Below the pieces are notes generated by a model. That model made no database searches and was not told the DNA's origin. It saw only the letters and a program-made list of their open reading frames with translations. Both the position numbers and the translations under genes were made by a program. Below are positions 3,526 to 51,128 of a stretch of DNA of 64,000 bases, one piece after another (the stretch's first letter is position 1; each line of letters starts with the position of its first letter). This DNA comes from a virus (Duplodnaviria; Caudoviricetes): the IMG/VR virus record IMGVR_UViG_3300028833_000053; one strand, written 5' to 3'.

Positions 3526-3547
3526 TAAATGGTAAATACCATTATCA
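3523..3547 (+). promoter_or_regulatory. Late promoter motif GGTAAATA (3531-3538) inside a hairpin reaching the next start codon
   Basis: TGATA-A-ATGGT-AAAT-ACCAT-TATCA; the last A is the A of ATG 3547. Confidence 0.6.
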
Positions 3548-9500: not shown

Positions 9501-12500
9501 AAAATGGGAAGGTGGGTTCCGCTGGGCACATAAGGTGAAGTCGGAGCCCGAGAAGTATCTTGACTACTTCTACATTGCGAACGGTGGCTTGGCGTTCAAG
9601 GTCAGCGAAGAGTCATATTCCTTCGCGGAAGCCATGTCAAGGATACCTCCTTTCTACATTGACTTTGTTACAAGAAACAAGCTCCAGGACTTGAACAACA
9701 TCCAGGTGTTGAAGGAATATTCCACGTTCATCCACCAAAGCGAGAATCCCGACAAGGTGAAGGAATGCGGTAACTTCAATCCCCTGATTGTGGATGCCAT
9801 ATTGAGGTATGGCGTTGAGCAGAGGGAATTGAGCAGACTCAAGAGAGACGGCCAGGGGATTCCGATATTGAACGGAAGTGGGGAATACATATACATTGAC
9901 GATGACAACAACATGGTTAAATATGATGCATCGGGGAACGCCATCAACCCATTGTCTGTGAAGGTCATATGCACGGAACCCTATTCAGGAGATTGGGATC
10001 GGCACATACCGACATATATGCCATACACAGGTTTCTCCAGTGTCAAGCCCGGCACTGTGGCGTCTTCCGTCAATCAAAGGCTCATAGAGTTGAACAACAC
10101 GTCTGGAACAAGCACGTTGCTTCTTCAGTTGGATGATGGCGAGATTGACGACTATCTGAGAATATACACCAACTACGTCAGAGTTGACGATGAATATGGT
10201 GATTACCACTACGACCTGTACTTCAACATACAAAATCTCTTCAATTCTCCGTTCGAGTACATTTCCACCGTGACCGGACAACCCAACGTCCTCATATTGA
10301 AGGATTCCTACCTTTATCTCACGGGTGACAAGTTCACGAAAGTCCAGGACGGGGCCACTGGAACATGGCACAACGAGATAGACGATGACAAGGTTGCCGC
10401 GATAAAGGAAGGTGGGGAACTCACGATCTATGGTCAGGTGAAGACATATTCTGGCGAGAAGTTGAGTGATGTCCAAACCATAAAGTTGTTCACTTACAAG
10501 ATTCACAACATATCCGACGACAAGCCGAAGTTCCTCATAGAGAAGACCTATGACATAACGAAGTCCACGTTGCAAGGGAACGTCACGAAGAACATCAACA
10601 TAGAGTTTTCCGACGTTTTGTGGACGTTGGACGAGGTGGATTTTGAAATAAAGGACAACAAGGACAACAAGTTCAAGGAGTTGAAGAATGACGTAACAGT
10701 TGTACAGCCCGTGAAGTTGCGCTACAACTGGGACAGAGAGGACGACTTCAGGATAAAGTCAATTTCCTTTGACCTCGTGAACGATGTCATAGACTTCAAC
10801 TAGGTTCCGAAGTTGTGTGAATATTGGGTTCAGGACAGGACTTTGCGCGACAAGACAAGTGACGGGAAGAACTACCCATACTATGACCATTGGAGCGACA
10901 AGTACATGAAGTTGGAAGTGGATGACATCACCTAGATTCCAAGAATGACCTTGATGTACGATGAACTCAACGGACACAATTTCGAGACAATCTATCTGAG
11001 GTGGAAACTTCCAGCGGGTTGCCGCATAATGGACACGATTGACCGGCTTGGTGGATATGTGTTCAGTTCCACCGCCGCGAACATAATGGCTGATTGCAAC
11101 AGCAGCAGAACAACGCCAAAGTTCAACGTCACCTTGGGTCATGTTGTTGTTCGCGTACATGAACCATAGAAAGACGGGGAACGTGGAAAGATGTATTTGG
11201 GAATGGAGCATTCCTCCACAAGGAGGCAGAATGGCTATGTATTGAAAGGATTGGCCGAAAGCATTGAAGCCGCGTTCAACCTCAATCCAAATACGTATGG
11301 GGCAGCCGCGAATCCGACCTTTGAGGACGCAAGTGGCACATACAAGGACAGGAACAACTAGACGCACAATGTAAGCACAACGCATGTTGCAGTTCCAGAA
11401 ATAGAGATAGAAGATGCGGTTCTCAGTGCCTCGTCAGGGGAATCCAACAAGCAGCACTCGATTATGCTCAACGCGAATGGCGGAACGATTGGTGGAAAGT
11501 CCCGTGTTGTGAAGGTGTTTGCCCATGGTCAGTTGTTTGGAAACTTTGTGCCTGACACTTGGGGCAGGAACATATTTGATGGATGGTACAACACAAAGGG
11601 AGTTCAAATAACTCCCGAAACGCCAATCAACTCCTCCGATACGTTGTATGCACGTTGGAAGATGGCAGAGTGCATAGTGACGTTCAAGATGAACGTAACC
11701 GGTGACATCACAGACAATGGATATATCAATGGGGACAAGGTTGTTGTTACACAGTCCTTTGACAGTGAAACGGGCGAAATGAAGAAGAAGTACCCTCACG
11801 GAACCAAGGTGGGTGAACTTCCAACGTTCTCCGCGTCTGGCGAGTGGAGTGCCTGCACACCAAATGGCTGGTGGACCGACAGCATCAATGGAGACCAAGT
11901 TGGGTCAGACAAGAGCATTGAGGACGATGTAACGTTCTATGCGCACTTGACTGGGAAGACCACCATCAAGCGCGTGAACAACAGTACTGGAAATAGATAG
12001 GACGTGACAATTGTGCGCGATGGCCGTGAACATTTGATAGCCTCGAACTTTGCACCAAACGTCTATTTGATGTCAACGGACAAACTTGACTTTGCAAAGG
12101 ACTTTGAACTTGTTGTTTGCGGTGTAACGGGTGGAAATATAACCAACAACCAAGAAATCTTTGGTATGACTGACGGCACGGCGCACGGTGGCGTTCCTCC
12201 GTATACGCATTCCGAACTTGAACTTGGCGCATATCAAAACAAGGCTATGTTTGAATTTACGCCTGGTAGAGTTGACACCTATGACGCAATAACGGCAAAT
12301 ACGTTGTATTATTACAAGGTAATCAAGAATGGTGCAAAGCTCTATGGATATCTCAGTAAAGATGGCGTGAATTGGGACTTCCAGAGAGAAGGAACGCCCA
12401 AGACAGTAAATTCCTGGTTTGTTCTTGGTTTTGATTATGATGTCACTTCTGAACAGGAGGACAGTGAATATTGGCGTGGCACGATAGACTTGACGGAATC

Positions 12501-14304
12501 CTACATCAATATTGGCGGTTGCAAGTACGAGTTCATCTTGAACATATTGATGATATTCAACGCCAACACCGGACACTTTGAGGATGGCACCGAAATAATG
12601 CGCGTTGAAAAGGATATGGGAATGTCGTTCAAGTTCCCCAACGCCTACAGGACGGGATACGTGTTGAATGGTTGGTATGACGCTTCCACCGCCGGAACAA
12701 AGATAGGAATACCCGATGGACAGTATATCCCGGACAAGTCACGCACGGTGTTTGCGCATTGGGACCCGATTAGGTACTATGTCAACTACAATGGAAACGG
12801 GAATACATCTGGAACCATGTCGAAGTCCGAGCATTTCTATGACCGTACATTGAACCTTGCGGAAAATGGCTTTGCTAGGACATACACGGTGACGTTCAAC
12901 GCCAATGGCGGTGATTGTTCAACGTCGGAGGTCACGGCAACACGTCCATTCAAGGAATGGAGAACCAATGCCGATGGAACAGGGACGAAGTTGAACAACA
13001 GACATTCTGAAGTTGTCAATTTGACGGCAATCGAAAATGAAACGAAGGAAATCTACGCCCAGTGGAGCAATGCCACAATAACGTTGCCATCCGCTACAAA
13101 GGCAAACCACACATTTTCCGGTTGGTATGATGCATTGACGGAAGGACACAAGATTGGGGACGCTGATGCAACCTATACATATGCGCCAACAGCCAACAGC
13201 ACGTTGTATGCGCATTGGGATATAGTCAAGTATGGCATTACACTCAATGCCAATGGCGGAACCATAAATGGAAAACCCCAGGACGTTGTGCAGTATGGTC
13301 ATGGTTCAGAATTTGGAAATCCATTGCCTGAAAGGGATGGATACGTCTTTGATGGTTGGTATTCAGAAGCCACCGGTGGAACCAGAATAGAGCCTACAAC
13401 AAAGATAACCGAAGCTGGAACGTACTATGCGCATTGGATTGAACAGATAGTTGTGACATTCGACAAGAACACGCCTTACAACGTCTATACGGTAAAGGGT
13501 GATGGAAGTGTCGGAGCATATTATTTCGCAGATGGTATTGTGCCAAAATTGAATGATTGGAACGGCGTTACAAAAGTGATTATGCTAGATGGAATAACCG
13601 AAGTAGGAAGTGGCGCATTTGATTCTTGGCGAAATTATCCGACGCAACCAAAACCAAACTTGCAGGAAGTGGTTTTCCCATCAACACTTAAAATCATCAG
13701 AGAAAATGCTTTCAAGGAATGTGAAAACTTGACAAGTGTGACTATACCGAACAGTGTTACGAGCATCGGGAATTATGCGTTCAGTGGGTGTAAAAAGTTG
13801 ACGAACTTGGTAATTCCTGACAGTGTAACTTATATGGGGGAAGGTGCGTTCAATCTTTGCAGTGGCATTGAAAGTATTACAATAGGCAATGGCATTACCG
13901 AACTTTCCGATCATGTGTTCCATAGTTGTGGCATGATAACCGGAACATTGAACATTCCAGATGGAGTGACTACTATTGGAGTAGCTGCGTTGGCCGGGCT
14001 GGGCGTATCAAGAATAACGTTTGGCAGTGATTTGACAACAATTAAAGATTCGGCGTTTGACTATTGTAGCAATTGCAAGATATTTGATTTTAGAAAGGTG
14101 AAAACTGTTCCGTCCTATCTAAATGAGTCTTGCTTATTCTATAGAATACCAGACGATAAGAAGATTATAGTTCCCGATGAGTTGTATGATTCTTGGAGAA
14201 GTACAGAACCCTGGAACGCAACAACAGATTATTGGGATGGTAAGATACATAATCACCAACAATGCATCGTCAAGGCAAGTGAATCTTCACTTGGGAGTTT
14301 ATAA
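3547..14304 (+). CDS. Giant virion-like protein (3585 aa): baseplate-wedge-like N-terminus, Listeria-Bacteroides (InlB B-type) repeats, C-terminal BspA-type LRR
   Basis: One frame with only TAG interruptions (3571, 3679, 4090, 5944, 6235, 6538, 10801, 10933, 11167, 11359, 11998), ends TAA; NANGG...F.GWY...LYAHW repeats about 11460-13450; VTIPNSVTSIGNYAFSGC LRR about 13590-14200. Confidence 0.85.
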
Positions 14305-35015: not shown

Positions 35016-35543
35016 ATGAAAATTGAAGTGTACAGCTTGAACAAGATTCTCAAGGTCGCGGACCGTGAGAAGGGGTGCAACATTCTCTCAATCAGAGATC
35101 CCTATGCAGGGGACGATGGCACGACGGACGCGAAACATGCGTGTCTTGACAGGAGAATCGCAAGGAATGGAATCAACGCCAAGATTGTCTATTTCGACGA
35201 CATAGACCCGTACCGTTTCTATCATGACATGGAGCATCCTTTCATCAAGGCGAAGTTCGTGGATGGAACGCATCAGCCCACGTTTTTCAACGCGCAGATT
35301 GCCGGCGAGATAATGCACTGGGTGATGGACTTGTGGAAGAAAGACCACAACTGCACCATCAAGATTCATTGTTGGGCGGGCCGTTCTCGGTCGCAGGCCG
35401 TTGGCTATTGGCTGAACATGTACTTTAACCTCATGTTGGAGCGCAACATTGAGGACTACATGGCGAACAACGCCGTCAACGTGACGGAGAAGATTCACTT
35501 CAATTGCGAGGTGCTGCGCGTGTTCACGTCAACTTTTGGATGA
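35016..35543 (+). CDS. Protein-tyrosine/dual-specificity phosphatase-like protein
   Basis: P-loop IHCWAGRSRS; FDD motif. Confidence 0.8.
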   Translation: MKIEVYSLNKILKVADREKGCNILSIRDPYAGDDGTTDAKHACLDRRIARNGINAKIVYFDDIDPYRFYHDMEHPFIKAKFVDGTHQPTFFNAQIAGEIMHWVMDLWKKDHNCTIKIHCWAGRSRSQAVGYWLNMYFNLMLERNIEDYMANNAVNVTEKIHFNCEVLRVFTSTFG

Positions 35544-38225
35544 CGAGCCGCTTGAGCTGGAGGACGATGAGGAACTTCCCCCGCCACCTTCCTGCCCTCC
35601 CGTTCCAAATTTCATCATGCTCTCGAAGTTTGCAAGGGACTTAACCAACTTGTCAAACTTGTTGCAGGCGCACTTCACCGGTATGCACTTCGGCTCAACG
35701 TGGTTCTCGGAAAGGGACAGGTGATTCCAAGGCTTGAGTTCCGTTATGTCAATGCCGCCTTGGCAAAGTTCAGCGGCAAGGCAAGTTTCATTTGCTTCCG
35801 ACTGTACGCTTGAACCCATGTTCATTTGGTCTTCGTTGGAATACTTGTTTGGTTGAAGTTCGTGCAAGGCAATCTCCTCATCGTACTCCTTCTTGTTCTT
35901 CATGTTGTTCACGTCGGAATAGATGCCATACGCCTCTTCAACCTTCTTGAGCAGTTTGTGGTTCTTCTCGCGCAGTTCGTTTATCTCGCATAGTTGGGCA
36001 TCGTTACAGCAGTTTCCATTCAACGATGGGTCTGCCATGACCGCTGAAATGGCAGCTTGCTTTATTCCAATTGCTTCAACCGCCGCGCACATCCACTGGC
36101 AAAGTTCCTTCACGAAAGGTCTGTAGTTCTCCGAGAGGAACGCTATGTTCTCCACCTTGTAGCACACGCAAATGGGCTTTAGCAGGTCGCAAAGGTGTCC
36201 GGGGCAGGTGAAGTGACCTATCAAGTCGCATGTGTCGAAGTTGTACGAGTCATAGCCGGTGCTTGCTGCCGTTTCACTGATAAGGGTTTGGTCAACAACA
36301 ACTGGACTCCAAGGCGAACAAGAACTCATTACAATAGCACCCATTGGGATTTGGTGGGTGTGGTCGTGTTCCGTTGTCACCGGAACTTCCTGCAAACGCC
36401 ACCAGTTGTCCGGGCAACTTATGATCCCATCCGTTCCACCGCCATGGTGTTCAACCTCTATTCTCCACAGTCTTGTCAAGAACTCCCTTTCCCAACAGTC
36501 ATACACTTCCGTCCATGCGTCCAACATGGAATCCTCAAATGCGTTTATGCTGTCAATTGCCATTTGACACCAAGTTGGAAGTTCTATTGTCGGGCCTTTT
36601 TCTCCGTACTCCCAAAGTTGGTTGAACATAGAGTCAAGAATGTTCTTTCCTTTCTTCGGCAACAGAGCCTGGTTCACCATTACGTCCATCACGCCCTGTT
36701 GGATTACGCACTTGAAGGCCGTTATGTGCTTCTTGAGTTTCTTCGGGCACATTCTTGTGTGGGTGATGGAACAGTGCCACCCTGGGTTCTCGTGGTCGCC
36801 TTTCTAGTCCTCTATGAGTTCGTTCATTATGTCCAACGCGCCATAGACCGGATTGGCAAGAGTGTCTATGTTGCACCATATCAAGGGGAACGGTCCAGGC
36901 CCGGAAGGGCATACGCATCTGCATTGCTTCATCGTGTCAAGGGACTTTTCCCTCAATTCTTGGAACAGCTTTTTCACGCAACTCAACTTGTTCGTAAGGG
37001 TGAATTTCTCAACGGCATCCTCCTTTGGCGCAATATACGTTGTACCTTCCTTCTTGTGGTTTTCCACACCCGTGTCGGTTACGCCAAGTTTCTTTCCCAT
37101 TTGGGAGTCTATTATCTTGGAAGTGAAAATCTTTTCCTTGTCTTGAGCCGCGTCTTGCTCTATCGTTTCCTTCACGTTGAGGAACTTTGAGATTGTCTGT
37201 GACACCGCGTCCTTGTTCATCAACCTGTCAATCACGCCCTCCAGCAAATCCACTTTGCGAATCATCGTCTCGATTGCGATTGGCTGCATGGGGAATTCGC
37301 AATAGGTTCCGAGTTTCATCATTTCAACCATTTCGCCCGTGAGACCGGGAACCCAATAGTCCTTGCAGTAGCGTTTGGTGCAAGAGTCCGGTCCGCGCTT
37401 GATGAACCAGTTGTTCGCCCAATCCTTCAATGCACGTCCAGTCCAAAACACGTTTGTTTGGAACGTCTCTTTGCAATCTTGGTTGGGGATGGAAAGAAGT
37501 TTGTCGTAGGAGTTGTTGTCAACCACAGTGTAGAGGTGTTCCATTCGCAGGATGTTTGCCTTGTACTGGTCAAGCGCCGCAAGCACCACGTTCTTGTCCT
37601 TTTCGTAGTGTTGCACCCAGCCTTCCGGGGCGAAGAACCTTGGATTGGTTGTTTCGGGATCGTAGATCTTCCCTTCAAGTTTTAGGAAGTCACGGCACGT
37701 CTTCTCCATCGTGATGAGATCGTCCTGTGGGGTGAACTGATCTGCAACGTTGTCGCGTTGCGTGATGGGGCAAGAGCTCTGTTTTGGAATGGCACGATAC
37801 ACGGTGAATATCTTTTTGCACATGGAGTTGACGGAATCATCAACGTCCTGCATTCCAACTTCACCAAGATCGGTGTCGGGATTTGTTCCACCCGGATATT
37901 CAGCTGCACTGTCCCCATTGGCAGAGCCGCCGCCGCAACTGCCGCCTTTTTTCTTTTGTTGTTCCTCTTCTTTGTCCTTGCCGTCTTCACCACTGCTTTC
38001 AGTCATTTGGGACAACTGGTCGAGTATGGCATCCTCTGCCTTGTCCCCTGCCCAAGAACCTACTTTTTCCCCGATATATCCTCCAACCATGCTTCCTATC
38101 GGACCGCCATATGCCGCACCAATGGATTCACCTGCCGCTTTTCCAGCTTTACCCCCTATTTGTGAACCCATCTGCCCTCTTTCAACTGGCGTGTTTTCAA
38201 TGAGATTTTCTTTCAATTCTTCCAT
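35529..38225 (-). CDS. Cys-rich virion-like protein with N-terminal glycine zipper (898 aa), TAG read-through at 36804
   Basis: Two same-frame ORFs separated only by TAG; ends TGA; GGTAAATA upstream. Confidence 0.75.
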
Positions 38226-40154: not shown

Positions 40155-43100
40155 ATGGCTCAACCAAGGACACAAGATAACCAAAAGGTATTTCAATCGG
40201 CGACATAGAACTTCAAGTCCTTTGTCGGTGCGGTTGACAATGTGTCGTCGTCAAAGAACATCAGTGAAATCTACGACAACATGACAAAGTTGTTTGACGT
40301 TTTCACCCAAGGTGCTTTGACGGGTCAGGGCGCAAACTCCGAGATTTTGCTGCGAACTGTCTACCGTTCCTTGTCGGATGACTTCCTGAAGATAATCCAG
40401 GACACGGACGCCGTTGAAAAGATAGTGGAACTCATAAAGAGCAAGCAGGAAAGCATAGACCCTGAGCAGGTTGACCAGGCTATGGTTTCCGAGACCACGA
40501 AGAAGGTTGTCACGAAGACGCTTGACCCATACGAGTGCGATCCAATGTCCGTGGTGTTGGATTTCGTTGACGAGCTTCAAACGGCAATTCTTCAAGTCAA
40601 GCTCAACCTCTCGCGTGAATACGAGAGGAAGAAGCTGGCTTATGCGAAATCCTATGAGGGACAACAGGAAGATCTTGACCGCCTCAATCAGGAATACACC
40701 GAGCAGGACGAGGCTATGGTGGAAGTCCTTGAACAGATGTCCGAGGACGAGGAGACTTGGAAAGAGGATTCGCTTGAGAAGTTGGAGAAGTTGCTTGAGA
40801 CGTTCAATGAGATTGGCAAGGGCAAGGATTCCAACTATGAGTTGTTGCAGGGTGTTGACAAAACCCTGTCCACCGACAAGCAGATTCAGCAATTCTTGAA
40901 GGAGAAGCCACCGAAGTTCTCTCCGAAGAAAACGCTTGATGCCATAAAGGGTGTTGGGCAGTTGAAGAGCAAGCCGGACGTCACAACCGTTGAGAGCAAG
41001 ACCCAAACCAAGACCGTTGTGAAGTCCACGCAAACGGAAATCAAGAACACGGTTGTGGTGAAGGAAAAGGCGAAGAAAGACGGAAAGAAAGTTCCATAGC
41101 CGAAGGTTCCTGAAAAACCAGTTGCGAAGGACGAGAAGAAAAAGGAAACGCCTGTAAAGGAAAAGACACCCGAAACGCCGACTCCGGTGAAGAAGGATGA
41201 GGCAAAGACGCAGACCCCACAGGTTCCGGAGAAAACTCCAGAACCCATTGGCAAGAAGGGTCCGCCACCAATCCAGCAGGAAAAGATAAAGGTTGCTCCG
41301 CCTCCACCATTGCCGGTAGTTCCACCTCAAATCGAGAAAGAAGAAAAGCCGAACGAGGATGAAAAGGCTAAAAAGCCCATTATGGAAAAACCCATAATGG
41401 AGAAGCCCATTATTCAAAAGCCGGTAATGGGAAAGCCGATAATAGAAAAGGCGGTTGACGAAAAACCCAAGGTTGAGAAACCAACTCTGGAAAAGGCAAC
41501 GAAGGAAAAGCCGACAATTGAGAAACCAAAGGTTGAACCAGTATAGGTATAGAAGCCAACCTTGGAGAAGCCAATGGTCGAGAAGCCGACGGTTGAAAAG
41601 CCCGTCGAGCAAAAGCCAATTGTTGAAAAGCCTGTAGTTGAAAAACCCAAAGAGGGAAAGACCACGGTTGAGAAGCCCAAGGTTGAAAAACCTAAAGTTG
41701 AGAAGCCAATTACAGAAAAACCCGTTGTTGCCAAGCCAATTGTTGAAAAGCCAAAGGTTGAGAAGCCGACATTTGAGAAGCCAAAGGACGAGAAGCCTGT
41801 AGTTGAGAAGCCCGTTCAACAAAAGCCGAAAGTCGAGAAGCCTCTTGTTGCGAAGCCGGTGGAGAAGAAGCCTTTGATAGGCAAGCCGTTGGTGAAGAAG
41901 CCCATTTTGGAAAAGCCGACGGAAGGGAAGCCCATTGTCCAAAAGCCATTGGTCAGGAAGCCTCTCATACAAAAGCCTGTTCTGTCAAAACCAGTTCTTG
42001 GAAAGCCGACAATGGGGAAGCCCATTTTCCAGAAGCCAATCACGCAAAAGCCCCTTCTTCAGAAGCCAATAGTTGAGAAGCCCATAAAGAAGAAGCCGTT
42101 GTTGGAAAAGCCGAAGGTTGAAAAGGCGAAGGTGGCGAAGCCGAAAATTGAAAAGGTCAAGTCAAAGGCCGCAAAAAAGGCTCCTGCCAAAATAGTCAAA
42201 AAGGCTGCAAATGCCGTTCCAAAGTCCCCAATGGGGAAAAAGACGCCCGACCCGAAATTGGCGCAAAAGAACTTTGCAAAGGAGTTGGACAAGACCTTGA
42301 ACGCCGGAAAAGTTCAAGAGCAGAAGTACACCAAGCAGTTGGATGTAATAGAGAAGTTTTTGGCAAAGGACGAGAAAGACGATAAGCAAAAGCACGCCGA
42401 GGATGCAAAGCAGCACAAAGAAGATGACATCATCTTCAAGAAGATGCAGGAGAAGGAAAAGAAGGTAAATGCTGCGAAGGACAAGGCCGAAAAAGAAAAG
42501 CGGGACGAGGAGAGGAAAAAGCAAGCCGCAAAGAAGAAGGAGGCGCCGAAGGCCGTCAAGGCGCAACCCAAACCCGCGTCGGCTCTTGGAAAGAAACCCG
42601 CTCCAGAGAAGCCAAAGGACACCAAGCTCAAGGTGAAGCCCAATGCGGGAATGTGTACGTGCCCGATATGCGGTTCGCAACACCTTCCTGGAATGCACTC
42701 ACATGGCGGGAAGAAAAAGGGTGCAATGCCAATGCCGATTCCCGTTCCAATGGGGAAGGGAAAGCAGGGCAAGTTGGCGCAACCCGCAATTCCATTGAAT
42801 CCACTTGGAGGTGACTAGTCCGAGGGTGGAATTCCACAGGACAAGATTGTGTCCACCCTTGGCACAATCCACGACAACTTGGGCAAGACGATGAACAACA
42901 AGAAGTTCAAGAACTCCTTCATGCTCAACTACAAGCCGATTCAAAAGGGCGTGAAGAAGCAACTTGACAAGGTTGGTTCGGACGAGAAAACCATCAGCCA
43001 GGACTTGGCGGAAACAGAGAAGGGCATCAAGAAGTTGAAGAACAAGAAGAAGGGCAGCTTCCTTTCGAGGTTGATGAACGGCGGCATAACCGGACTCATA

Positions 43101-46100
43101 TTCAAGGTCATAGGTGGATTGATTCTCATTGCCCTTGCAAGAATCGCGTTGAAGAAGTGGAAGGAGGCGTATATGCCTCCGACCGACGGCTCCACGATGA
43201 CCATATTCGGATTCCAGATTCCCGGATGGGACACCATAAAGGCAATTGGAATAGGCATATACAATTTCGTCACCGTGGGATTGATGAACCACTATGACAG
43301 ACTCAAGTTGTTCTTTGGAAACCTTCACAACCAACTTTTCGGCAAGAAGGGGGCAATACGAAGCATGGCGCAGGTTCGCCACATATTGCGCAGAATAGTT
43401 TGGGCGTGGATTATCGGACAGACGAAGAAGGCCGCGCGCGGCCTTTGCGACTGGCTGCTTGACATCTTGGCAGTCCCCTTGAACGCCTTGGCTCCTGGCG
43501 CGGGGCTTGTGTTGAAGTTCCTCATCAAGCTCCTCCCGGAAATATACTCGTTCATCACCACCCAGATAATGCTCTTGTGGAGCAAGAACAAGCGCGATGC
43601 GGAAGAGGCCGAAACCGCGGAAGCCGAAAGCATTGGAATGGCCGTCAATTCGGGAACAACCACGGCGATGAGCATGATAAGTTCCCAGCTCAAGGGTTTG
43701 TCCTCTGGGGTGAAGCCATTCAAGAACCAGGCGGCGAACCTACCCGGTCTTGAAACTCAAAAGGGTCCGAAAGGAAGGGGCCCGAAGAAGATGGCCATAA
43801 TGCGCCGCTTCCCAATCAAGTATTACAAGTCCTTTGACAAGGCGAAGAAGATGCAGAACAAGAAGTTTGAGTCTGACATGGAGGAGAACAAGCAGAAGGA
43901 CGAGAAGCGCATAAACGGCGGGGACGTTCTCATCAGCCAGATCGTCGAGGACACGTCAAAGATAAACCAGGCGGTTGACGAATTTACTGGAAGTATTGGA
44001 ACGTGGATCCATAGTTGGGACAATGAGAAAGTTGCGAAAATAAGGAAGTATGCCCCGAAAGAATATGAAGATGCAGACAATCGGGTGTTGGCAGATAAGT
44101 GGAAATGGGATAAAGAATTCAAATAGAAGGTAATTCATAATTACACGTCGTCGATTAGTCAGGAGATATACAAGAGAACCATAGTGGTGGAGCTGAACAA
44201 GGTTTCCGCGTACATGAACGCGCTTGGAAAGTCCTAGAGATTCAAGAACGTGAAAGGTCCGCTGTATGATCCAGTCAAAGGGTGGAATCCTGGATACAGG
44301 GTGTATGCCTCCGATTTGAAGACGGCGATTCCATTCAATCCGCTTGAAAAGATACACAGCAAGGCCGACATTCCAATTGGCGAGCCTGCGAAGGCCGAAG
44401 CCGATTCAATTGGTTGGATGCCCTTCAAGTGGATTTCCAATGGAGTTCCCGTGAACGTGCATCCTATAAACTGGGAATTGGCTAGGGCGAACGCCATATG
44501 GAACTTGTATAACTGGTTGATGAAGAACCGTTTTCAGAACAATTTGAACAATTGGAACACAACCAACATTGAAGATTTCAAGAAAGCCATTCTTCCAGAC
44601 GTGTTTGCCGACTGGAGAAGCTGGAACCAGCCTGTTGGTGATCACAGAAGCGAAGCCACATGGGGCAAGGCATATCCGCCAGAGACATATCAATATGGCG
44701 ATCAATTCGTACGGTTCATAAATGCTTTCCGCGCTGGCAAGATAGATCATGGGAACAACAATCTTGACACCGCGATGAAATTGAGAGACCCGACGTATCT
44801 TGAAAAAATGTTCGACAAGATGCACAAGAAGTTGGGCGACTATGGCACTGCGGCGGTTTCCGGCGCTGCCATAGGTGGTGCTGTCGGTGGTGCGGTTGGA
44901 GCCGTTGCTGGTGCGGCAATAGGTACCGCAGCGGTTGGTGTGTACAAGGGCGCAAAGTGGGTTGGACAGAAGATGGACGACTTGCAACGCGCTTTGTCCT
45001 ACGACCAAGATCCAGACGGAGAGGAGGAAGAATAGACGGAAGAAGTGGAGGAAGAGCAAAGCAGCGTTCCTCTCATAGGTTGGTTGATAAACGGCGTCAA
45101 GAAAGTTGTCAAGGTCATCAAGAAAATCGTCAAGAAGGTGAGCCGCAAGGTCGCAGCCCTCAACCGAATCAAGGAATGGCGCGGCAAGACCTATTTTGGG
45201 GTTAACTATGGTGACATCCGCGATTTCATGATTGACACTGGCGTTTTGCAGTTGTTCAGTCAGGGATAGATCATCAAGCCAGTCCAAAAGACGATTCCTC
45301 TTCTGGACAAGCTCATTGACATGAAGGTGATAGGGAAGGGGTCAAGCGTGGAGGATGGCAACTCGATGCATTCTCTCATGGAGGCTTTCTTCGCATACAA
45401 CCGCATTGAGGGATATGACTGGAAGAAAATGCAAAATGACGAGAGGGCGCAGGCTGCTTTCGCCCAGTCCCTTTTGGAATATCTCGCCTTGAAGGTCATT
45501 CCTCAGTGGAACATAGTTGAAAAGCTCCTTTCAAACGACGTTACGAAGAAAACCGACGAAACCAAAAAGGCGATGGATGAAGGTGTGCAGGTTCTTGCAA
45601 ACTTGCTTTCATTCAAGGGCATAATGGAACACCTTTCAAAGCATCTCCGATTCCCCAACATGAAGGTCAAGGTCATAGACTTCTCCAATGCAAGGGACGA
45701 TCACGACAGGGAGTTGCTTGAACAGTTCAGAAAAGACCAGGGAATTCCCAACAGCGATGAAAAGAACCAAATACTTGCACAGTGGCAAGGCGTTTGGTCG
45801 AAGATTCCAAGCATGAACGATGAGGAGCTTCAAGGCAGCTTGGATAACTTGAAGAAACTCATTGGGGTTGCGGCATTTGAAGCGAAGTACACCGGAGAGT
45901 TCACTTACGAGAAGCAGTTGCGCAAGTTCTACACCGCCATGATAAAGGAGAAGGACGAGCGTTTGAAAGCACAGGCCGCAGGTGACAAGATTGTTCAGAA
46001 GCCGGGTGGGATAGAGCGCGTCATGGAAGGTCCGCCGCCGAAGACCATGTTGGAAATGGAGGAAGAACGCAAGGCAAAGGAAGCCGAGGAAGCAAGAAAA

Positions 46101-46598
46101 GCGGCGGAAGAAGAAGAGAAGCGCAAAGCCGAAGAGGAAAAGAGGCTGCAAGAGGAGGCGAAACGCCAAGAGGAATTGAAAATTGCCCAGGCGAAGATTG
46201 CCGCCATGGAAGCCATCAAGAAGCAGGAGCAGAACTACGAGAACATCTTGGAGAAGATGGTGCAAGACCCATCAACGGTGACTGATGAGGAATTGAAGTC
46301 ACTTGGTGAAGACGTGAAGAACTTGAAGCAGGAAGCAGAAAACAGGATTGCACAACTGCCAAGAGAGGAAAGGGAAATGAAGCTGGCGTTGATTCGCGGC
46401 GACAAGCTTTCTGAAAAGACCTTCGCCGAGTTGAAGGAAACCGCAGTGGGGTTGAGTGGAAGTCTACAAGCCTACATCTAGGAAGTGAACCAAATTCCAG
46501 TTGGCTCTATAATGGCAATATAGGAAACGCCAGGAACGCCAACAGAAAGCAAGATATAGTTGCAAGACTCCGACAATGTGGATATGGGCGACGAATAA
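40155..46598 (+). CDS. Giant tape-measure/baseplate-hub-like protein (2147 aa) with a KPxxE repeat tract
   Basis: One frame interrupted only by 12 TAGs (40206, 41097, 41544, 41550, 42816, 44124, 44235, 45033, 45267, 46479, 46521, 46557), ends TAA; coiled-coil-like and hydrophobic segments, glycine zipper. Confidence 0.8.
41373..42152 (+). repeat. About 52 tandem KPxx(E/Q) pentapeptides (15-nt period)
   Basis: Register is kept across the two TAG codons. Confidence 0.9.
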
Positions 46599-46629
46599 AA
46601 AGACTTGGTTGGATAAGCCAAGTCTTTTT
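46597..46629. terminator. Bidirectional-type terminator hairpin
   Basis: AAAAAGACTTGG...CCAAGTCTTTTT; TATAAT follows at 46632. Confidence 0.75.
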
Positions 46630-46654
46630 AGTATAATTGAATGTGACGATTTAA

Positions 46655-46685
46655 TGCCCTATAGTGTAACAGCAGCACAGGGCAA
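46655..46685 (+). pseudogene. tRNA remnant: acceptor stem and D-arm only
   Basis: TGCCCT...AGGGCA stem enclosing GTGT-AACAGCA-GCAC. Confidence 0.5.
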
Positions 46686-46691
46686 ATTGAA

Positions 46692-46781
46692 TGAGCAGTG
46701 GTGTACGGCTTGCACAGACGGTCTCTAAAACCGTGGCTTCTGAAGCGAACGGACTGGGTTCGACTCCCAGCTGCTCAACCA
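46692..46781 (+). tRNA. Amber suppressor tRNA (anticodon CUA), long variable region
   Basis: Acceptor TGAGCAG/CTGCTCA + A + CCA; D-stem GTGT/GCAC; anticodon arm ACGGT-CTCTAAA-ACCGT (CTA at 46725-46727); T-arm CTGGG-TTCGACT-CCCAG. Confidence 0.92.
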
Positions 46782-46795
46782 ATTTGGAGACTGAC

Positions 46796-47083
46796 ATGGA
46801 AAAGAAAATTGACTTTGAGTTATTGACTGTAATTGACGAATCCATTGGTGATTCGGCAAGTTATGTTGATGCACTGGACAAGGTTATCAAGTGGGAGAAG
46901 GAGAATCGTGGATTGAAGGGATTCCATGTTTCCGCGCCTCTTGACGTGATGTGCGGAACAAGGAAAGTGGAAGACCCCGAAAAGGAAGCCGAGGAAATGG
47001 CGAGGGGTGTTCTGTTGATGCATCGCGCAGGGGCGTTGGGGAAATGGAAGGAAATCTCAGGTGACGAATTGGAGAGGATGTAA
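46796..47083 (+). CDS. Hypothetical protein
   Basis: SD GGAG after the tRNA; likely start 46796. Confidence 0.7.
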   Translation: MEKKIDFELLTVIDESIGDSASYVDALDKVIKWEKENRGLKGFHVSAPLDVMCGTRKVEDPEKEAEEMARGVLLMHRAGALGKWKEISGDELERM

Positions 47084-47085
47084 AA

Positions 47086-47334
47086 ATGTTTAATTTGTTC
47101 TATTGGGGTTTGTTTGGAAGTCATTTGGAAGAGGAATGGGAGCGCGAACATCCTGAGGAATCCGCGGAGCAGAAATACATTGAACAGCGTTGGGAACTTC
47201 AGGCGCAGTTGAGGAAATACCCAAATGCCAGAACCACAATCCGGATGCTTGACAAAGAGAACTACCGCACGTATGTTAGGCGAATGCTGGAGATTGGCGG
47301 TTCAAGGTCGATAAAGCAGTTTGAGGATATTTGA
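47086..47334 (+). CDS. Hypothetical protein
   Basis: Operon packing. Confidence 0.65.
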   Translation: MFNLFYWGLFGSHLEEEWEREHPEESAEQKYIEQRWELQAQLRKYPNARTTIRMLDKENYRTYVRRMLEIGGSRSIKQFEDI

Positions 47335-47337
47335 GAT

Positions 47338-47406
47338 ATGAGACGTGTGTTTGTAATAAGAAAGGATTTGCATCTGAAGCCCGGCAAGATGGGCGCGATG
47401 GATTGA
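47338..47406 (+). pseudogene. Orphaned 5' end of pth2 (MRRVFVIRKDLHLKPGKMGAMD*)
   Basis: Closely matches the N-terminus of the 48665 gene. Confidence 0.8.
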
Positions 47407-47427
47407 TTTTGTAGTAAAAACTACACA

Positions 47428-47487
47428 GGACAGATTGACTCTAATCAATTTTGGCTAGGTTTGCATAACGCCTAGCCATTACTGTTT
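47428..47487 (+). ncRNA. Putative three-way-junction regulatory RNA (C4/CI-like)
   Basis: P1 GGACAG/CTGTTT, P2 ATTGA/TCAAT, P3 TGGCTAGG/CCTAGCCA; loops complementary to downstream sites. Confidence 0.5.
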
Positions 47488-47554
47488 TAGACTAAAATGG
47501 TAAATACTTATAAACTTGTTAGAGCAAGGTTATAAAAATAAAGGTAATTAAGTT

Positions 47555-48655
47555 ATGCATCGTTATACTCAAGAAGAATTATAGTCTATATTTTAGGACT
47601 AGAAATTGGGTGAGGAAATAATTCCTCATATTAAAAACAATAAGATAGATATTGTTTTGTGGAATCAACGATATAAGCAACAATGGAAATAGATTTAGAG
47701 ACAGATGAAGAAGGGTTTATTGTGTCCGGTTTGTGGCACAATACTATTTAAGTTTTATGAGAAACATTTAGCACAGCATAATCTTACTGTAAAATAGTTA
47801 TATGATTAGGTATATGGTATAACTGAATCACCCAAATGCCCTGTGTGTGGAGAAGCAACAGAGTTTGTTAAGAACAAATGGTTTTATCGTAAATTTTGTT
47901 GTAATGCTCATTAGTGCAGAATTATAAATGAGACTGACGGATTGAGGAACGGATGGACTATTGAAGATATTAGAAATCATAATTCCATGATAATAGAACG
48001 TGGAAGAAAAGTATGCGATATAGTCAATAAAAAATATGGAAGTCAGTTTTCAATAAAATTAACTGATGAATAGCGTCTTAATAGAGGGTTAATAAATGAT
48101 GATGACTATTAGGAGTGGCAGACATAGTAGAAGTTAAAAAAATCAGAAGCCGGAAAACTTGGAGGGAAAAAATATTCTTCGTTATATGGATATAAATTAT
48201 TGAAGACATGGGGTTACAAAACGAAAATATTTTTGACTGAAAATAAATGGTTCATGCTTGAATCTTAGTAGGAATTGTTTCATTTATTGAAACGTGTATT
48301 TATCGACGGAGATAAGATTGAAACTATGAGTAATGCAATATTTTTAGAGAATACGACTAATTTATTTTCTGGAACAAGTGCTTTTACGGATTTGGTTATA
48401 GATAATAATGGAATAAAAACAAATTATGAAGTTCATTGTATAGATGATGAAGACACTATAAAAAGAAAACGATATTGTTCTGAATTAAATGGATATGAAT
48501 TTGTATTGGAAGATATTACTTTATACACATATCCGAATGGAAAATACATTGACCAATTAAGATAGTTTATAAATGTAGATGAAATTTATGAAAAGTTGAA
48601 ATATGAAAATAAATGTGGTAATGTATTTGTATTGAACTTATATGATTATGTATAA
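47555..48655 (+). CDS. Zinc-finger plus PD-(D/E)xK-like putative endonuclease (366 aa, 15 TAG codons)
   Basis: Two CPVCG motifs, KFCC; C-terminal ES..E...FTDLVI...YEVH; GGTAAATA at 47499-47506; ends TAA. Confidence 0.7.
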
Positions 48656-48664
48656 TTATTCAAT

Positions 48665-49243
48665 ATGAGAAGGGTTATCATAATACGTAAAGATTTACAC
48701 CTCAAAGCTGGTAAATTAGCTGCTATGTGTATGCACTGTGCAGAGGCATATTGGACTAACTTGATGAAGTCATCCGTTGTCATTGACAACGAGTTCATGA
48801 CTTTGCCCGCATGGGAGAACTATGGAAATGGAAAAGTGGGACCGGCCCTCTACAAGCACCCAGGACTTTACAAGTTGTCTGAAGAGGCTTACAACCGTGG
48901 GGAGAAGTCCTTCACCACAACGAGGGAAAACGCCCGTAAGTCCGTGACGGTCACGATGGAGATTCCAAAGGACATTTGGGAAGGGTATGTAAACGACATC
49001 TTCACAAAGACAATTTGCGAAGCACGCAACTTGAACAACTTGAAAACGAAGATTGAGCCGGTTGTGCAGGAACTTGGATTGGTTGAGGGGATTGATTGGG
49101 GCTACATCAACGATTGCTGCAAGACGGACTTGACGCCCGAGAACGAGGATGGCACTTGCACGATTGGTGCGTGGTTCAAGCCATTGCCTGACGAAGACGC
49201 ATTCAAGATTAGCAAGAAGTTCAAGCTTTACAGGGATGATTGA
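48665..49243 (+). CDS. pth2: Peptidyl-tRNA hydrolase type 2
   Basis: IIIRKDL..AGKLAAMCMH, FTKTIC, IND..KTD, TCT.G..KP. Confidence 0.75.
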   Translation: MRRVIIIRKDLHLKAGKLAAMCMHCAEAYWTNLMKSSVVIDNEFMTLPAWENYGNGKVGPALYKHPGLYKLSEEAYNRGEKSFTTTRENARKSVTVTMEIPKDIWEGYVNDIFTKTICEARNLNNLKTKIEPVVQELGLVEGIDWGYINDCCKTDLTPENEDGTCTIGAWFKPLPDEDAFKISKKFKLYRDD

Positions 49244-49264
49244 TTCCTGTATAATTGGACTATT

Positions 49265-49585
49265 ATGAAAAATATTCTTTTAGTTGCCGCCATTATGTTT
49301 CTTGGAATGGTCAAGGCGGAGACCAACATAAAGCCATCGGACACCAATGACCTTCATGTTATCATGGTGTCGAAATCCCAGTGGACAGACATCAAGAACA
49401 ACGTTGACACGAATGGGTTCTGCAGAATTCCAGACCAACATGCGGCCATCGTGATTACAAATGGTCTGCCTGATGTTGAACTGGTTGTGCCGATGCTGCG
49501 TCCAATTGGAAGGGGAGCGGATAGAAATCCCTACTACAACTATCGGAAACAGGAACCACTTCCATATGTGGGTCAATTATATTGA
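49265..49585 (+). CDS. Hypothetical protein with signal peptide
   Basis: MKNILLVAAIMFLGMVKA. Confidence 0.65.
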   Translation: MKNILLVAAIMFLGMVKAETNIKPSDTNDLHVIMVSKSQWTDIKNNVDTNGFCRIPDQHAAIVITNGLPDVELVVPMLRPIGRGADRNPYYNYRKQEPLPYVGQLY

Positions 49586-49602
49586 TGTAATGGAGAGAAT
49601 AA

Positions 49603-50244
49603 ATGAAAAAATTGGTATACATTGTTTTTGCATTCTTTGCGCTGGTATTTGATGCAAATGCCATCAGTTTGAACTGTATGAAAATGCGTAGTATAAATTC
49701 TGGCGGTAGCTCTAATCAGAAGGGAATTTTCAAGGATTGTTTTTCAAGGCACTTTTACGAAATCAAAATTTCCAATGTCTCCCCAGAGGAATCTCAAAAA
49801 ACATATTCGTTGCGTGTTCTTCCATTCCTTAAGGTGTGTAAAGGTGGTTTTGCATTTCCATATTTTCCTGGGATAGTTGAATACACAGATATAAAATTTG
49901 ATTCAAAGAAAAGTTTTACGTGTGTTTATTATTCGCCTTTGACTAAATGGACAAAGGATACTTGGCCCGGAGTTTCTGGGGACTGGTCTAAAGGTCTTGT
50001 CAACTACACAATTGCAGTGGAACTCATTGAATCTGACAAAGACACTCCAGTTAGGTTTTGGACAAATAGTGGAATGTCGTTTATTAGAGGGGCGAAGTCC
50101 TTTGAAGATGGCAAGTCCAAATTAAAGAGAAAATACATTGAGTGGCTTGAAAATGAAATTGATTCAAAAGTCAAGGAGTCTTCATATTGGGATGAGGATG
50201 CCAGAATAGAAGCGGGTGATTGGAAGTCCAAGAATGCAGAATAA
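49603..50244 (+). CDS. Hypothetical protein with signal peptide (AT-rich)
   Basis: MKKLVYIVFAFFALVFDANA. Confidence 0.7.
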   Translation: MKKLVYIVFAFFALVFDANAISLNCMKMRSINSGGSSNQKGIFKDCFSRHFYEIKISNVSPEESQKTYSLRVLPFLKVCKGGFAFPYFPGIVEYTDIKFDSKKSFTCVYYSPLTKWTKDTWPGVSGDWSKGLVNYTIAVELIESDKDTPVRFWTNSGMSFIRGAKSFEDGKSKLKRKYIEWLENEIDSKVKESSYWDEDARIEAGDWKSKNAE

Positions 50245-50348
50245 ACTACATTCAGATTCCGAAAATGAATCACCGTGATTGGTTGAAGTGGGGATTGGGG
50301 CTGAAGAAATTGTAAATATTTTTTCAGTTGCTTGGAGGATATTGTGAA

Positions 50349-50987
50349 ATGCGCATTGGAATCATGAAGAAAATAGTTACGGCTCTGCTATGCTTCGCTT
50401 TCCTCAGTGGAAGCGGGGATGTATTATTGTGGACAGTCGATGGAGATGCAACAGTTGATGGGGGGGGGGAATCATCTGTATATGCCCTTTTGTCGCCTGT
50501 ACCTGACGATGATTTGCATAATCCAGCAGCAAGGGTAAAGATAAGCGGTGGCGGTTTATCTTCTCCGATATATCTTGACAACTATTCTTTTCCAGATGAA
50601 GATGCAGATACAATGGAATTGGATGTTGGTGGTGGAGAATTTGGTGTTTGGGTAGGAGACATAGGTGGCTATTATGGTGTAAAGCTTCAACAATCTCATG
50701 TTCCAACTGAACTTGCGATGGAAGTATTATATTCAATTGAACTTGGTAGAATGGATTGGGATGACGATACATATATGTCTGGGGCGTTTCAAGTTTTGGC
50801 TGAATCTGACAAATATACATATGAACAAGTTAGGCAGCATATGTATCCAACGTTTGATTTGTATCCACCAGTTACTGACTGGAAGCCAATGAGGTATTAT
50901 ACTACGCCAGAACCTTCATCCGCCCTTCTTTGTATAATTGGTTTTGGAATGTTAATGCTTAAAAGGAAATCACATGAAGCCCGATGA
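50349..50987 (+). CDS. PEP-CTERM sorting-domain surface protein
   Basis: Signal peptide; C-terminal TPEPSSALLCIIGFGMLMLKRK. Confidence 0.85.
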   Translation: MRIGIMKKIVTALLCFAFLSGSGDVLLWTVDGDATVDGGGESSVYALLSPVPDDDLHNPAARVKISGGGLSSPIYLDNYSFPDEDADTMELDVGGGEFGVWVGDIGGYYGVKLQQSHVPTELAMEVLYSIELGRMDWDDDTYMSGAFQVLAESDKYTYEQVRQHMYPTFDLYPPVTDWKPMRYYTTPEPSSALLCIIGFGMLMLKRKSHEAR

Positions 50988-51128
50988 CAAGTTGAATTGG
51001 AAGCCGATTGACAACGGCAAGACGGAAGAGCCCGTGAATGAGAAATATGAAGAAGAGGATGACGAGTTCATTCCCTCCACGAACAAACGTGATTGGGTTG
51101 CCGTGGACAATATTTGAGGGAGATTTCC

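Follow-up and report, generated by a model that had tools for sequence, protein, structure and literature searches.

What do two short sequences do that lie upstream of a mobile endonuclease-like gene and are complementary, one to its leader and the other to its start codon? The question is raised by a 64,000-nucleotide stretch of DNA from a virus of the Caudoviricetes (IMG/VR record IMGVR_UViG_3300028833_000053; the whole stretch is called the window below), in which the gene for protein P0001 is preceded by a compact RNA element. The most likely answer is a conserved, hitherto undescribed RNA switch that keeps the nuclease untranslated. In the reading favoured here, with modest confidence, positions 47425-47559 form the 5' leader of a free-standing homing-endonuclease cassette and would act in cis as a translation-initiation lock, bypassed by transcripts from an internal promoter. 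An initial annotation of this DNA had proposed a start-codon lock of this kind on a presumably toxic nuclease; the covariation of both pairings and the conserved placement of a promoter-like motif support it, with repression as the likely effect.

Four short sequences form the core of the element. Direct reading finds all of them where the initial annotation had placed them, with each pair exactly complementary: CTCTAA (loop a) to TTAGAG (its target a*), and TGCATAAC (in loop b) to GTTATGCA (b*), the latter spanning the ATG (Table 1). The minimum-free-energy fold of 47405-47565 consists of five hairpins in series (-37.5 kcal/mol, z-score -2.8), in which CTCTAA falls in the loop of a 5-7 bp hairpin (47432-47451), TGCATAAC in that of the GGCTAGG/CCTAGCC hairpin (47453-47477) and TTAGAG at the apex of the fifth hairpin (47508-47535). 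RNAduplex comparison of lock and target returns long imperfect duplexes and is uninformative. Among 3000 dinucleotide shuffles of the upstream 147 nt, a complement of the start-region 8-mer occurs in 61, and inside a predicted hairpin loop in 8. With such complements in 2% of shuffles (0.3% in a loop), the window alone is therefore just suggestive.

The argument is carried by related leaders. Thirteen leaders were compared, from gut and rumen phage contigs: that of the window, L004 (identical to L005), L007, L027, L009, L031, L028, L029, L011, L032, L090, L085 and L119. Most of these giant phages read TAG as sense. Homologues were collected by an exhaustive HMMER and word search, supplemented by a metagenome pattern scan and by a covariance model (R1) applied to a 418-kb phage and to IMG/VR candidates. 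R1 is passed by only L108, L090, L085 and L119 among 98 IMG/VR candidates, and by none of the 120 genome-contig candidates among the matches listed. Loose DNA pattern hits (L008, L013-L026) were discarded on inspection, such patterns being mostly chance matches. No match is found in IMG/VR with an exact 25-mer of the second lock hairpin (P3) or in a related-locus search with P0001, and none by blastn against 50,697 phage records.

In all 13 leaders, the exact reverse complement of the leader's own loop a recurs 58-126 nt downstream, by inspection in the apical loop of the leader hairpin (P5). The pairs fall into seven specificity classes, each an exact complement of 6-7 nt (loop a first, apex second): CTCTAA(C) with (G)TTAGAG, CTTCCGA with TCGGAAG, GTGCTAA with TTAGCAC, CTCGTAA with TTACGAG, ATACCAA with TTGGTAT, GTACCAA with TTGGTAC, and TCCCTAG with CTAGGGA. 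Non-cognate combinations across classes pair over only 2-4 nt in the 10 leaders compared. Loop b forms a duplex of 6-12 bp with the AUG region in all 13 leaders, CAT always standing opposite ATG, and its flanks track changes of the start region at -1 to -3 and +4, including those of the second codon (ATGCA, ATGAA). At least nine loop-b variants occur (loop b first, start region second): besides TGCATAAC with GTTATGCA, these are TGCATAAT with ATTATGCA, TGCATAGT with ACTATGCA, TGCATAGA with TTTATGCA (one G.U), TTCATCTT with AAGATGAA, TTCATATG with CATATGAA, ATTCATGT with ACATGAAT, TTGCATGAT with ATCATGCAA, and ATTTCATATGTA with TACATATGAAAT. The G.U pair inside the b/b* duplex of L029 fits pairing at the RNA level.

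In a MAFFT alignment of 10 leaders, with both pseudoknots included in the structure, 96.7% of cells hold standard pairs against 81.3% after shuffling, a level reached by none of 500 shuffles. Sixteen pairs are changed on both sides, the covariation score is 0.409 versus 0.127, and sliding the partners leaves only 28-43% of cells paired. Because of single gaps that MAFFT puts in the wrong place, within the 6-nt loops and within L011, the tool's pair counts are slightly conservative; over all 13 leaders, seven of seven kissing-helix pairs are compensatory. Covariation between loops and targets, on which the initial annotation had staked its proposal, is thus strong for both pairings and shows that both are under selection.

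The scaffold that presents the loops covaries as well. In the stems P1, P2, P3 and P5, 95-97% of cells are paired versus 81-83% after shuffling (0/500). The P3 stems are unrelated in sequence among the leaders, yet the stem is formed in each of them, mismatch-free in nearly all, and P1 changes from ACAG/CTGT in the window to GCAG/CTGC in L085 and L119 and to GTAG/CTAC, with five extra pairs, in L011. These compensatory changes in P1 indicate that the three-way junction of the initial annotation (47428-47487) is real, a few bases from the register proposed there; the five-hairpin fold of the window does not display it because a stem at 47479-47503 (hairpin 4) outcompetes the short P1. That alternative stem, likewise proposed in advance, does beat P1 in the window fold and overlap the promoter-like motif. 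It is stable only in the window, L009 and L031 (-6.0, -6.4 and -5.5 kcal/mol, versus -0.5 to -2.4 in six other leaders), and a conserved role for it was rejected on this ground. In the leader hairpin P5, a variant in run X4 (47514 A>C) mends an A.G mismatch.

Table 1 Features of the leader, the nuclease gene and the insertion site (positions in the window)
Feature	Position	Strand	Remarks
Resident PTH2 remnant	47338-47406	+	21 codons, then Asp and TGA; cassette joined after 47400
Hairpin 1, TGTAGT AAAA ACTACA	47410-47425	+	Left end of cassette; from the fold; contains a degenerate GTAAAAA copy of the upstream GTAAATA motif
P1, 5' strand, ACAG	47425-47428	+	Pairs with 47482-47485; followed by the invariant junction GACAG (47429-47433); compensatory in L085, L119 and L011
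P2 hairpin, ATTGA/TCAAT	47434-47449	+	Loop a CTCTAA at 47439-47444; closing pair covaries (A-U, G-C, U-G, U-A, C-G)
P3 hairpin, GGCTAGG/CCTAGCC	47453-47477	+	Loop b at 47460-47470; anti-start TGCATAAC at 47462-47469
Hairpin 4 (alternative stem)	47479-47503	+	Clade-specific; overlaps the P1 3' strand and the promoter-like motif
P1, 3' strand, CTGT	47482-47485	+	U-run next; covariation
Promoter-like motif ATGGTAAATA	47497-47506	+	Core GTAAATA at 47500-47506; between lock and targets
P5 leader hairpin	47508-47535	+	Apex a* TTAGAG at 47519-47524; fold and stem covariation
Shine-Dalgarno-like AAAGG	47540-47544	+	10 nt before the ATG, between a* and b*; core AAGG in 13/13 leaders
b* GTTATGCA over the start codon	47552-47559	+	ATG at 47555-47557; exact complement of loop b
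P0001 gene, 366-aa mobile endonuclease-like protein	47555-48658	+	15 in-frame TAG, best read as Gln; ends with TAA (48656)

The motif between lock and targets recurs as well. A ATGGTAAATA-type motif stands between the lock and the leader hairpin in 12 of the 13 leaders, ending 2-9 nt before the hairpin in the 10 that were measured. Its core GTAAATA occurs 11 times in the window where 3.2 copies are expected (0/100 shuffles), and 10 of these copies sit on the coding strand immediately before a gene; giant structural-looking open reading frames (ORFs) are among these genes. The extended consensus is aaATGGTAAATA, to which the copy in the leader conforms. The late promoter of T4 is TATAAATA. The initial annotation had called the motif a late promoter: the motif is real, enriched upstream of genes and kept in the leaders, and its presumed timing is read from those genes. 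An RNA-library contig matches 47327-47878 without difference, which is compatible with read-through RNA; if it does derive from RNA (DNA in the library being possible), there are transcripts that carry both the lock and the start codon.

The frame of the nuclease gene depends on how TAG is read. Under the standard code, it stops after nine codons from the ATG; with TAG as sense, it is open to its TAA. The window looks like part of a large TAG-as-sense phage. Its long plus-strand frames ending in TAG all continue in frame into the next frame. When TAG is read as sense, 3529-14304 yields an ORF of 3591 aa (11 TAG), 40155-46598 one of 2147 aa (12 TAG) and 35529-38225 (minus strand) one of 898 aa (1 TAG). 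TAG seems to stand for Gln all through the phage, where it makes up about 0.1-0.6% of codons; in the endonuclease gene, its share is 4%. An amber-suppressor tRNA (anticodon CUA) is encoded at 46692-46781. It is 90 nt long and has a U1:A72 pair, a variable arm of the long kind and a CCA end present in the gene; the promoter-like sequence TATAATTGAATGTGACGA precedes it, and Rfam scores it only as weakly tRNA-Sec-like (33.6 bits). RNA-library contig depth over this tRNA is 90-146, versus about 8 for its neighbours. In the 418-kb phage (L002, a complete IMG/VR genome), the same promoter sequence is followed by a different tRNA-CUA, of 77 nt.

From these parts, a mechanism can be proposed. The P1-P2-P3 three-way junction would present two loops, of which loop a (CUCUAA) would kiss the apex of P5 (UUAGAG) and loop b, UGCAUAAC, would pair with GUUAUGCA across the AUG, leaving the Shine-Dalgarno sequence between both targets. 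On an RNA containing both halves, the start codon would be held in a duplex, the 30S subunit could not initiate and the nuclease would not be made; since the AUG pairing must open for initiation, it is most simply repressive. Locked RNAs would arise by read-through from the upstream operon of tRNA-CUA and small genes, or from a promoter just upstream of P1. Transcripts from the internal ATGGTAAATA promoter, with an expected start at about 47512-47515, would lack P1-P3 and be translatable. The 15 in-frame UAG codons would add a second dependence, on the suppressor tRNA of the phage. Translational repression, timing by the internal promoter and intramolecular action are what we infer from these sequences.

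The cis lock with its bypass meets several observations that weigh against it. L119 has no internal GTAAATA. The motif resembles the T4 late promoter, but its temporal class is deduced here only from the genes behind it. The public-run sequences are contigs, from which transcript starts and ends cannot be read, and an RNA-library contig beginning at 47524 (run X5) was accordingly given no weight as a transcript start. L004, L027, L028 and L029 have a second GTAAATA 5-7 nt ahead of P1, and in L009 and L031 the 3' end of a tRNA lies 7 nt upstream of P1; together with the U-run after P1, such an upstream motif or tRNA end would fit a discrete, trans-acting small RNA. If the internal and the upstream promoter belong to one class, a simple early-versus-late bypass fails to explain the design.

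The same two pairings could accordingly operate in trans, a possibility to be taken seriously though clearly the less probable one. A discrete P1-P3 RNA of about 60-65 nt, derived from its own GTAAATA promoter, from tRNA 3' processing or from cleavage of read-through RNA and ending at the U-run after P1, would bind mRNAs from the internal promoter, through the kissing loops (7 nt) first and then at the AUG. Nuclease synthesis would be held down, and each cassette would owe its specificity to its loop class, as with C4 of P1/P7. The upstream motifs and tRNA ends just described speak for such an RNA, as does the way P1 closes the 5' and 3' ends of the domain with Us next. In six of the seven classes, loop a follows the scheme N-U-NNN-R-N, like an anticodon loop, and sits on a stem of 5 bp; this pattern is typical of fast antisense recognition loops, and the splitting of loop a into seven classes between almost invariant flanks suggests selection for specificity. 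Nevertheless, P1 with 4-6 bp in most leaders would make a poor terminator stem for the candidate small RNA, and the upstream motif of the window is degenerate (GTAAAAA). Lock and target are, moreover, always adjacent on one strand, so that intramolecular pairing is kinetically favoured. Whether the pairings work within one RNA, which is the likelier case, or between two, repression of translation would be the outcome either way.

The favoured cis lock is further placed by the genes that stand behind the leader. The ORF after the leader belongs to the P0001 family in eight cases, to the GIY-YIG type (phrog_314) in L009 and L119, to the HNH type (phrog_655) in L032, and to phrog_3339, 'homing endonuclease', in L090 and L085. 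That one leader precedes at least four unrelated endonuclease types marks it as a regulatory front end which mobile endonucleases have in common. In L009 and L031, the tRNA whose 3' end lies 7 nt before the leader is the strongly represented suppressor tRNA-CUA, and read-through from it would be heavy. In L119 (6342-6460, minus strand), 13 nt lie between P1 and the leader hairpin, and the GIY-YIG-type ORF has no TAG; this leader may be either a decayed copy or one unlocked by another route.

Three related front ends lack P1-P3 and have an intrinsic terminator instead: L030 (110-194), L033 (G001 231422-231560, minus strand) and L002:2098-2218. Their order is terminator, (TGTATAAT and) GTAAATA, leader hairpin GGAGTCA..TGACTTC and AAAGG Shine-Dalgarno sequence. 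The replacement of the lock by a terminator before the same module of promoter, hairpin and Shine-Dalgarno sequence suggests that selection has favoured insulation from upstream transcription. The gene behind the terminator front end of L002 encodes a phage endonuclease I domain and a C2H2 zinc finger.

This substitution also bears on the improbable reading that the pairings serve RNA processing, stability or termination, whether by attenuation of the P4 CI type or by a compact fold that shields the 5' end of the mRNA. The P4 CI RNA acts through premature termination, and an intrinsic terminator in the lock's place would suit such a role. One of the two targets, however, is always the AUG, and loop b tracks the second codon and positions -1 to -3 as occlusion of the start codon predicts; after the targets there is no terminator-like hairpin with a U-run.

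A shade less probable still is a sensor for the suppressor tRNA. Loop a (CUCUAA) equals six of the seven bases of the tRNA-CUA anticodon loop (CUCUAAA), and its target a* (UUAGAG) shows UAG. When abundant, the tRNA could thus form the same 6 bp with a*, displace loop a and open the lock when UAG is decodable; with the a* apex as a UAG 'specifier', this would be a T-box-like tRNA sensor acting on initiation, and would couple the UAG-rich nuclease to the genetic-code switch, an idea of equally slight probability. The gene requires 15 UAG read-throughs, and the leaders of L009 and L031 directly follow this tRNA. The other six classes, however, show GGA, AGC, ACG, GGU or AGG at the corresponding place, though their genes hold 3-12 TAG, and the idea is rated low because these classes do not share the likeness. 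It was, besides, noticed post hoc, and opening a/a* alone would leave the AUG paired. Chance complementarity in an AT-rich spacer is next to impossible: the matches are short (6 and 8 nt) and the start-region 8-mer does turn up in shuffles, but exact complements persist through seven loop-a sequences and at least nine loop-b variants, and the covariation across leaders, matched by 0/500 shuffles, refutes it. A guide RNA whose loops pair with the DNA target was also rejected, as leaders at the same insertion site have differing a loops (window, L027, L028/L029) and loop b follows its own start codon.

The gene under the start-codon lock encodes a protein that matches no Pfam and no PHROGs family. 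Its AlphaFold (AF2) model, with 11 homologues as input, has a predicted local distance difference test score of 82, and Foldseek relates the model to TnsA (probability 0.99, E 0.013). VIA-align over residues 194-366 gives middling scores, with TnsA at Z 8.0 (132 aligned, root-mean-square deviation 3.2), Vsr at Z 6.0 and I-Bth0305I at Z 5.3; as modelled, the C-terminal domain resembles a PD-(D/E)XK fold. Among the 11 homologues, E240 and K305 never vary and D279 and E292 hardly do, which makes these four the candidate active-site residues. The homologues contain 7-17 TAG apiece, with Gln six-fold enriched opposite TAG columns. The nuclease of the initial annotation is supported by the fold, by the conserved acidic and lysine residues and by a site that is occupied by the cassette in some phages and empty in others, and a mobile endonuclease is a reasonable, though not proven, reading of P0001. 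In the upstream region of a distant homologue, P0007 (L012), no such leader is found.

The mobility of the cassette can be read from its insertion site. A domain search identifies an intact gene for PTH2 peptidyl-tRNA hydrolase (48665-49243) as the next gene after the nuclease ORF, and tblastn with this gene returns a match at 47338-47424, including a diverged copy of its first 21 codons at 47338-47400. Phage L002 is collinear with the window to 47400 and again from 48740, with PTH2 uninterrupted, so that 47401 to about 48739 constitutes an inserted cassette of about 1.3 kb inside the PTH2 gene. An empty site is present in a bovine-metagenome contig (run X6), which continues past 47400 as intact PTH2 and sets the junction exactly after 47400; the break after Met21 is common to the window, L028, L029 and L030. 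The cassette shows the presence/absence polymorphism at one site of a conserved host gene by which a free-standing homing endonuclease is recognized. A group I intron was rejected as a reading of the insertion, with no intron family at E <= 10 (Rfam, 46550-48800) and a downstream PTH2 that has its own start codon, N-terminus and TGTATAAT motif.

Several observations concern the surroundings of the cassette. The G+C content falls from about 48% to 33-41% across 47401-51000. Identity to L002 is about 68% over the first 75 nt of the intact PTH2 copy, versus 81% further on, a divergence of the 5' end as expected if the cassette carried the donor's PTH2 5' end along by co-conversion. The sigma-70-like TGTATAAT is enriched in the window (7 copies versus 0.84 expected) and stands 8-9 nt ahead of two start codons, that of PTH2 (48665) and that of the gene after it (49265), with no Shine-Dalgarno sequence in either region (48649-48667, 49248-49267); the mRNAs of both genes look as if they may be leaderless. 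The first of these copies is embedded in the 3' end of the endonuclease ORF, comparable to the promoters inside the T4 seg and mob genes. In public runs, 46600-48800 is present nearly whole in sheep-gut metagenomes, from which the DNA may come, and in part in bovine and goat gut runs, and a sheep-gut metatranscriptome library holds 69% of the words sampled from it.

Among known systems, the C4 RNA is the closest in mode of action. C4 is a stable RNA of about 77 nt, processed by RNase P, which acts in trans and controls the icd-ant antirepressor operon; its details are said to have been worked out by Citron and Schuster in 1990. The 'C4/CI-like' label of the initial annotation holds for the mode of action, with two short pairings round the ribosome-binding site that covary in 13 leaders, and does not extend to family membership. 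The Infernal/Rfam check recommended there was run: cmscan of the whole window at the gathering score gives no match, C4 (RF01695) included, and at E <= 10 over 46550-48800 nothing falls within 47400-47560. Like C4 (P1/P7, RF01695) and P4 CI, the element is a small structured RNA that precedes its target and shares strand and transcription unit with it (for C4, in part PMC8198154). As in both, two short separate sequences pair with two sites round the ribosome-binding region of the next gene (here a/a* over 6-7 nt and b/b* over 6-12 nt), and the pairing sequences vary between related elements. The setting differs from that of C4: here the phage is giant and lytic-looking, a homing endonuclease takes the place of the icd/ant operon as target, and the paired sites are the apical loop of a hairpin and the AUG itself. 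No icd, ant or repressor genes are seen, and the genes behind the 13 leaders are homing-endonuclease types.

To our knowledge, the controls of phage homing endonucleases known so far are simple hairpins in T-even phages. In I-TevI, I-TevII, I-TevIII and segB of T4 and in mobE of Aeh1, RNA structure hides the ribosome-binding site on long transcripts and a late promoter bypasses it, as has been demonstrated for T4 I-TevI and suggested for its relatives (PMC2988022). As in these controls, the translation start would be held in RNA structure on long transcripts (loop b covering -3 to +5, with occlusion the presumed effect); the putative ATGGTAAATA promoter would give transcripts that lose the inhibitory strand. 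Unlike the local T-even hairpins over the ribosome-binding site, the inhibitor is a three-way junction 60-130 nt upstream with two long-range loop pairings, in a module common to at least four endonuclease types. Kissing-loop antisense systems such as ColE1 RNA I/RNA II, R1 CopA/CopT and hok/sok make first contact between short-stemmed loops that are complementary over about 7 nt and have a U-turn-like pattern. Fully complementary loops of this size on short stems are found here as well; in those systems, however, the two RNAs come from opposite DNA strands and complementarity is free, whereas here both partners lie on one strand and complementarity is kept by compensatory mutation. A literature search found no description of this leader, and it is best classed as a new RNA family whose type of logic is already known.

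In conclusion, the element is a portable leader with its own fold, shared by at least four unrelated types of endonuclease gene in giant phages of gut and rumen, and a new RNA family whose clear pseudoknot covariation is suited to an Rfam-style model. Its specificities, at least seven and mutually non-complementary, would represent natural orthogonal kissing-loop translational locks for riboregulator design, and the leaders provide a clean test case for cis versus trans action of tandemly encoded antisense elements. For the phages themselves, the lock would offer a handle on the timing of mobile nucleases in viruses that switch their genetic code during infection.

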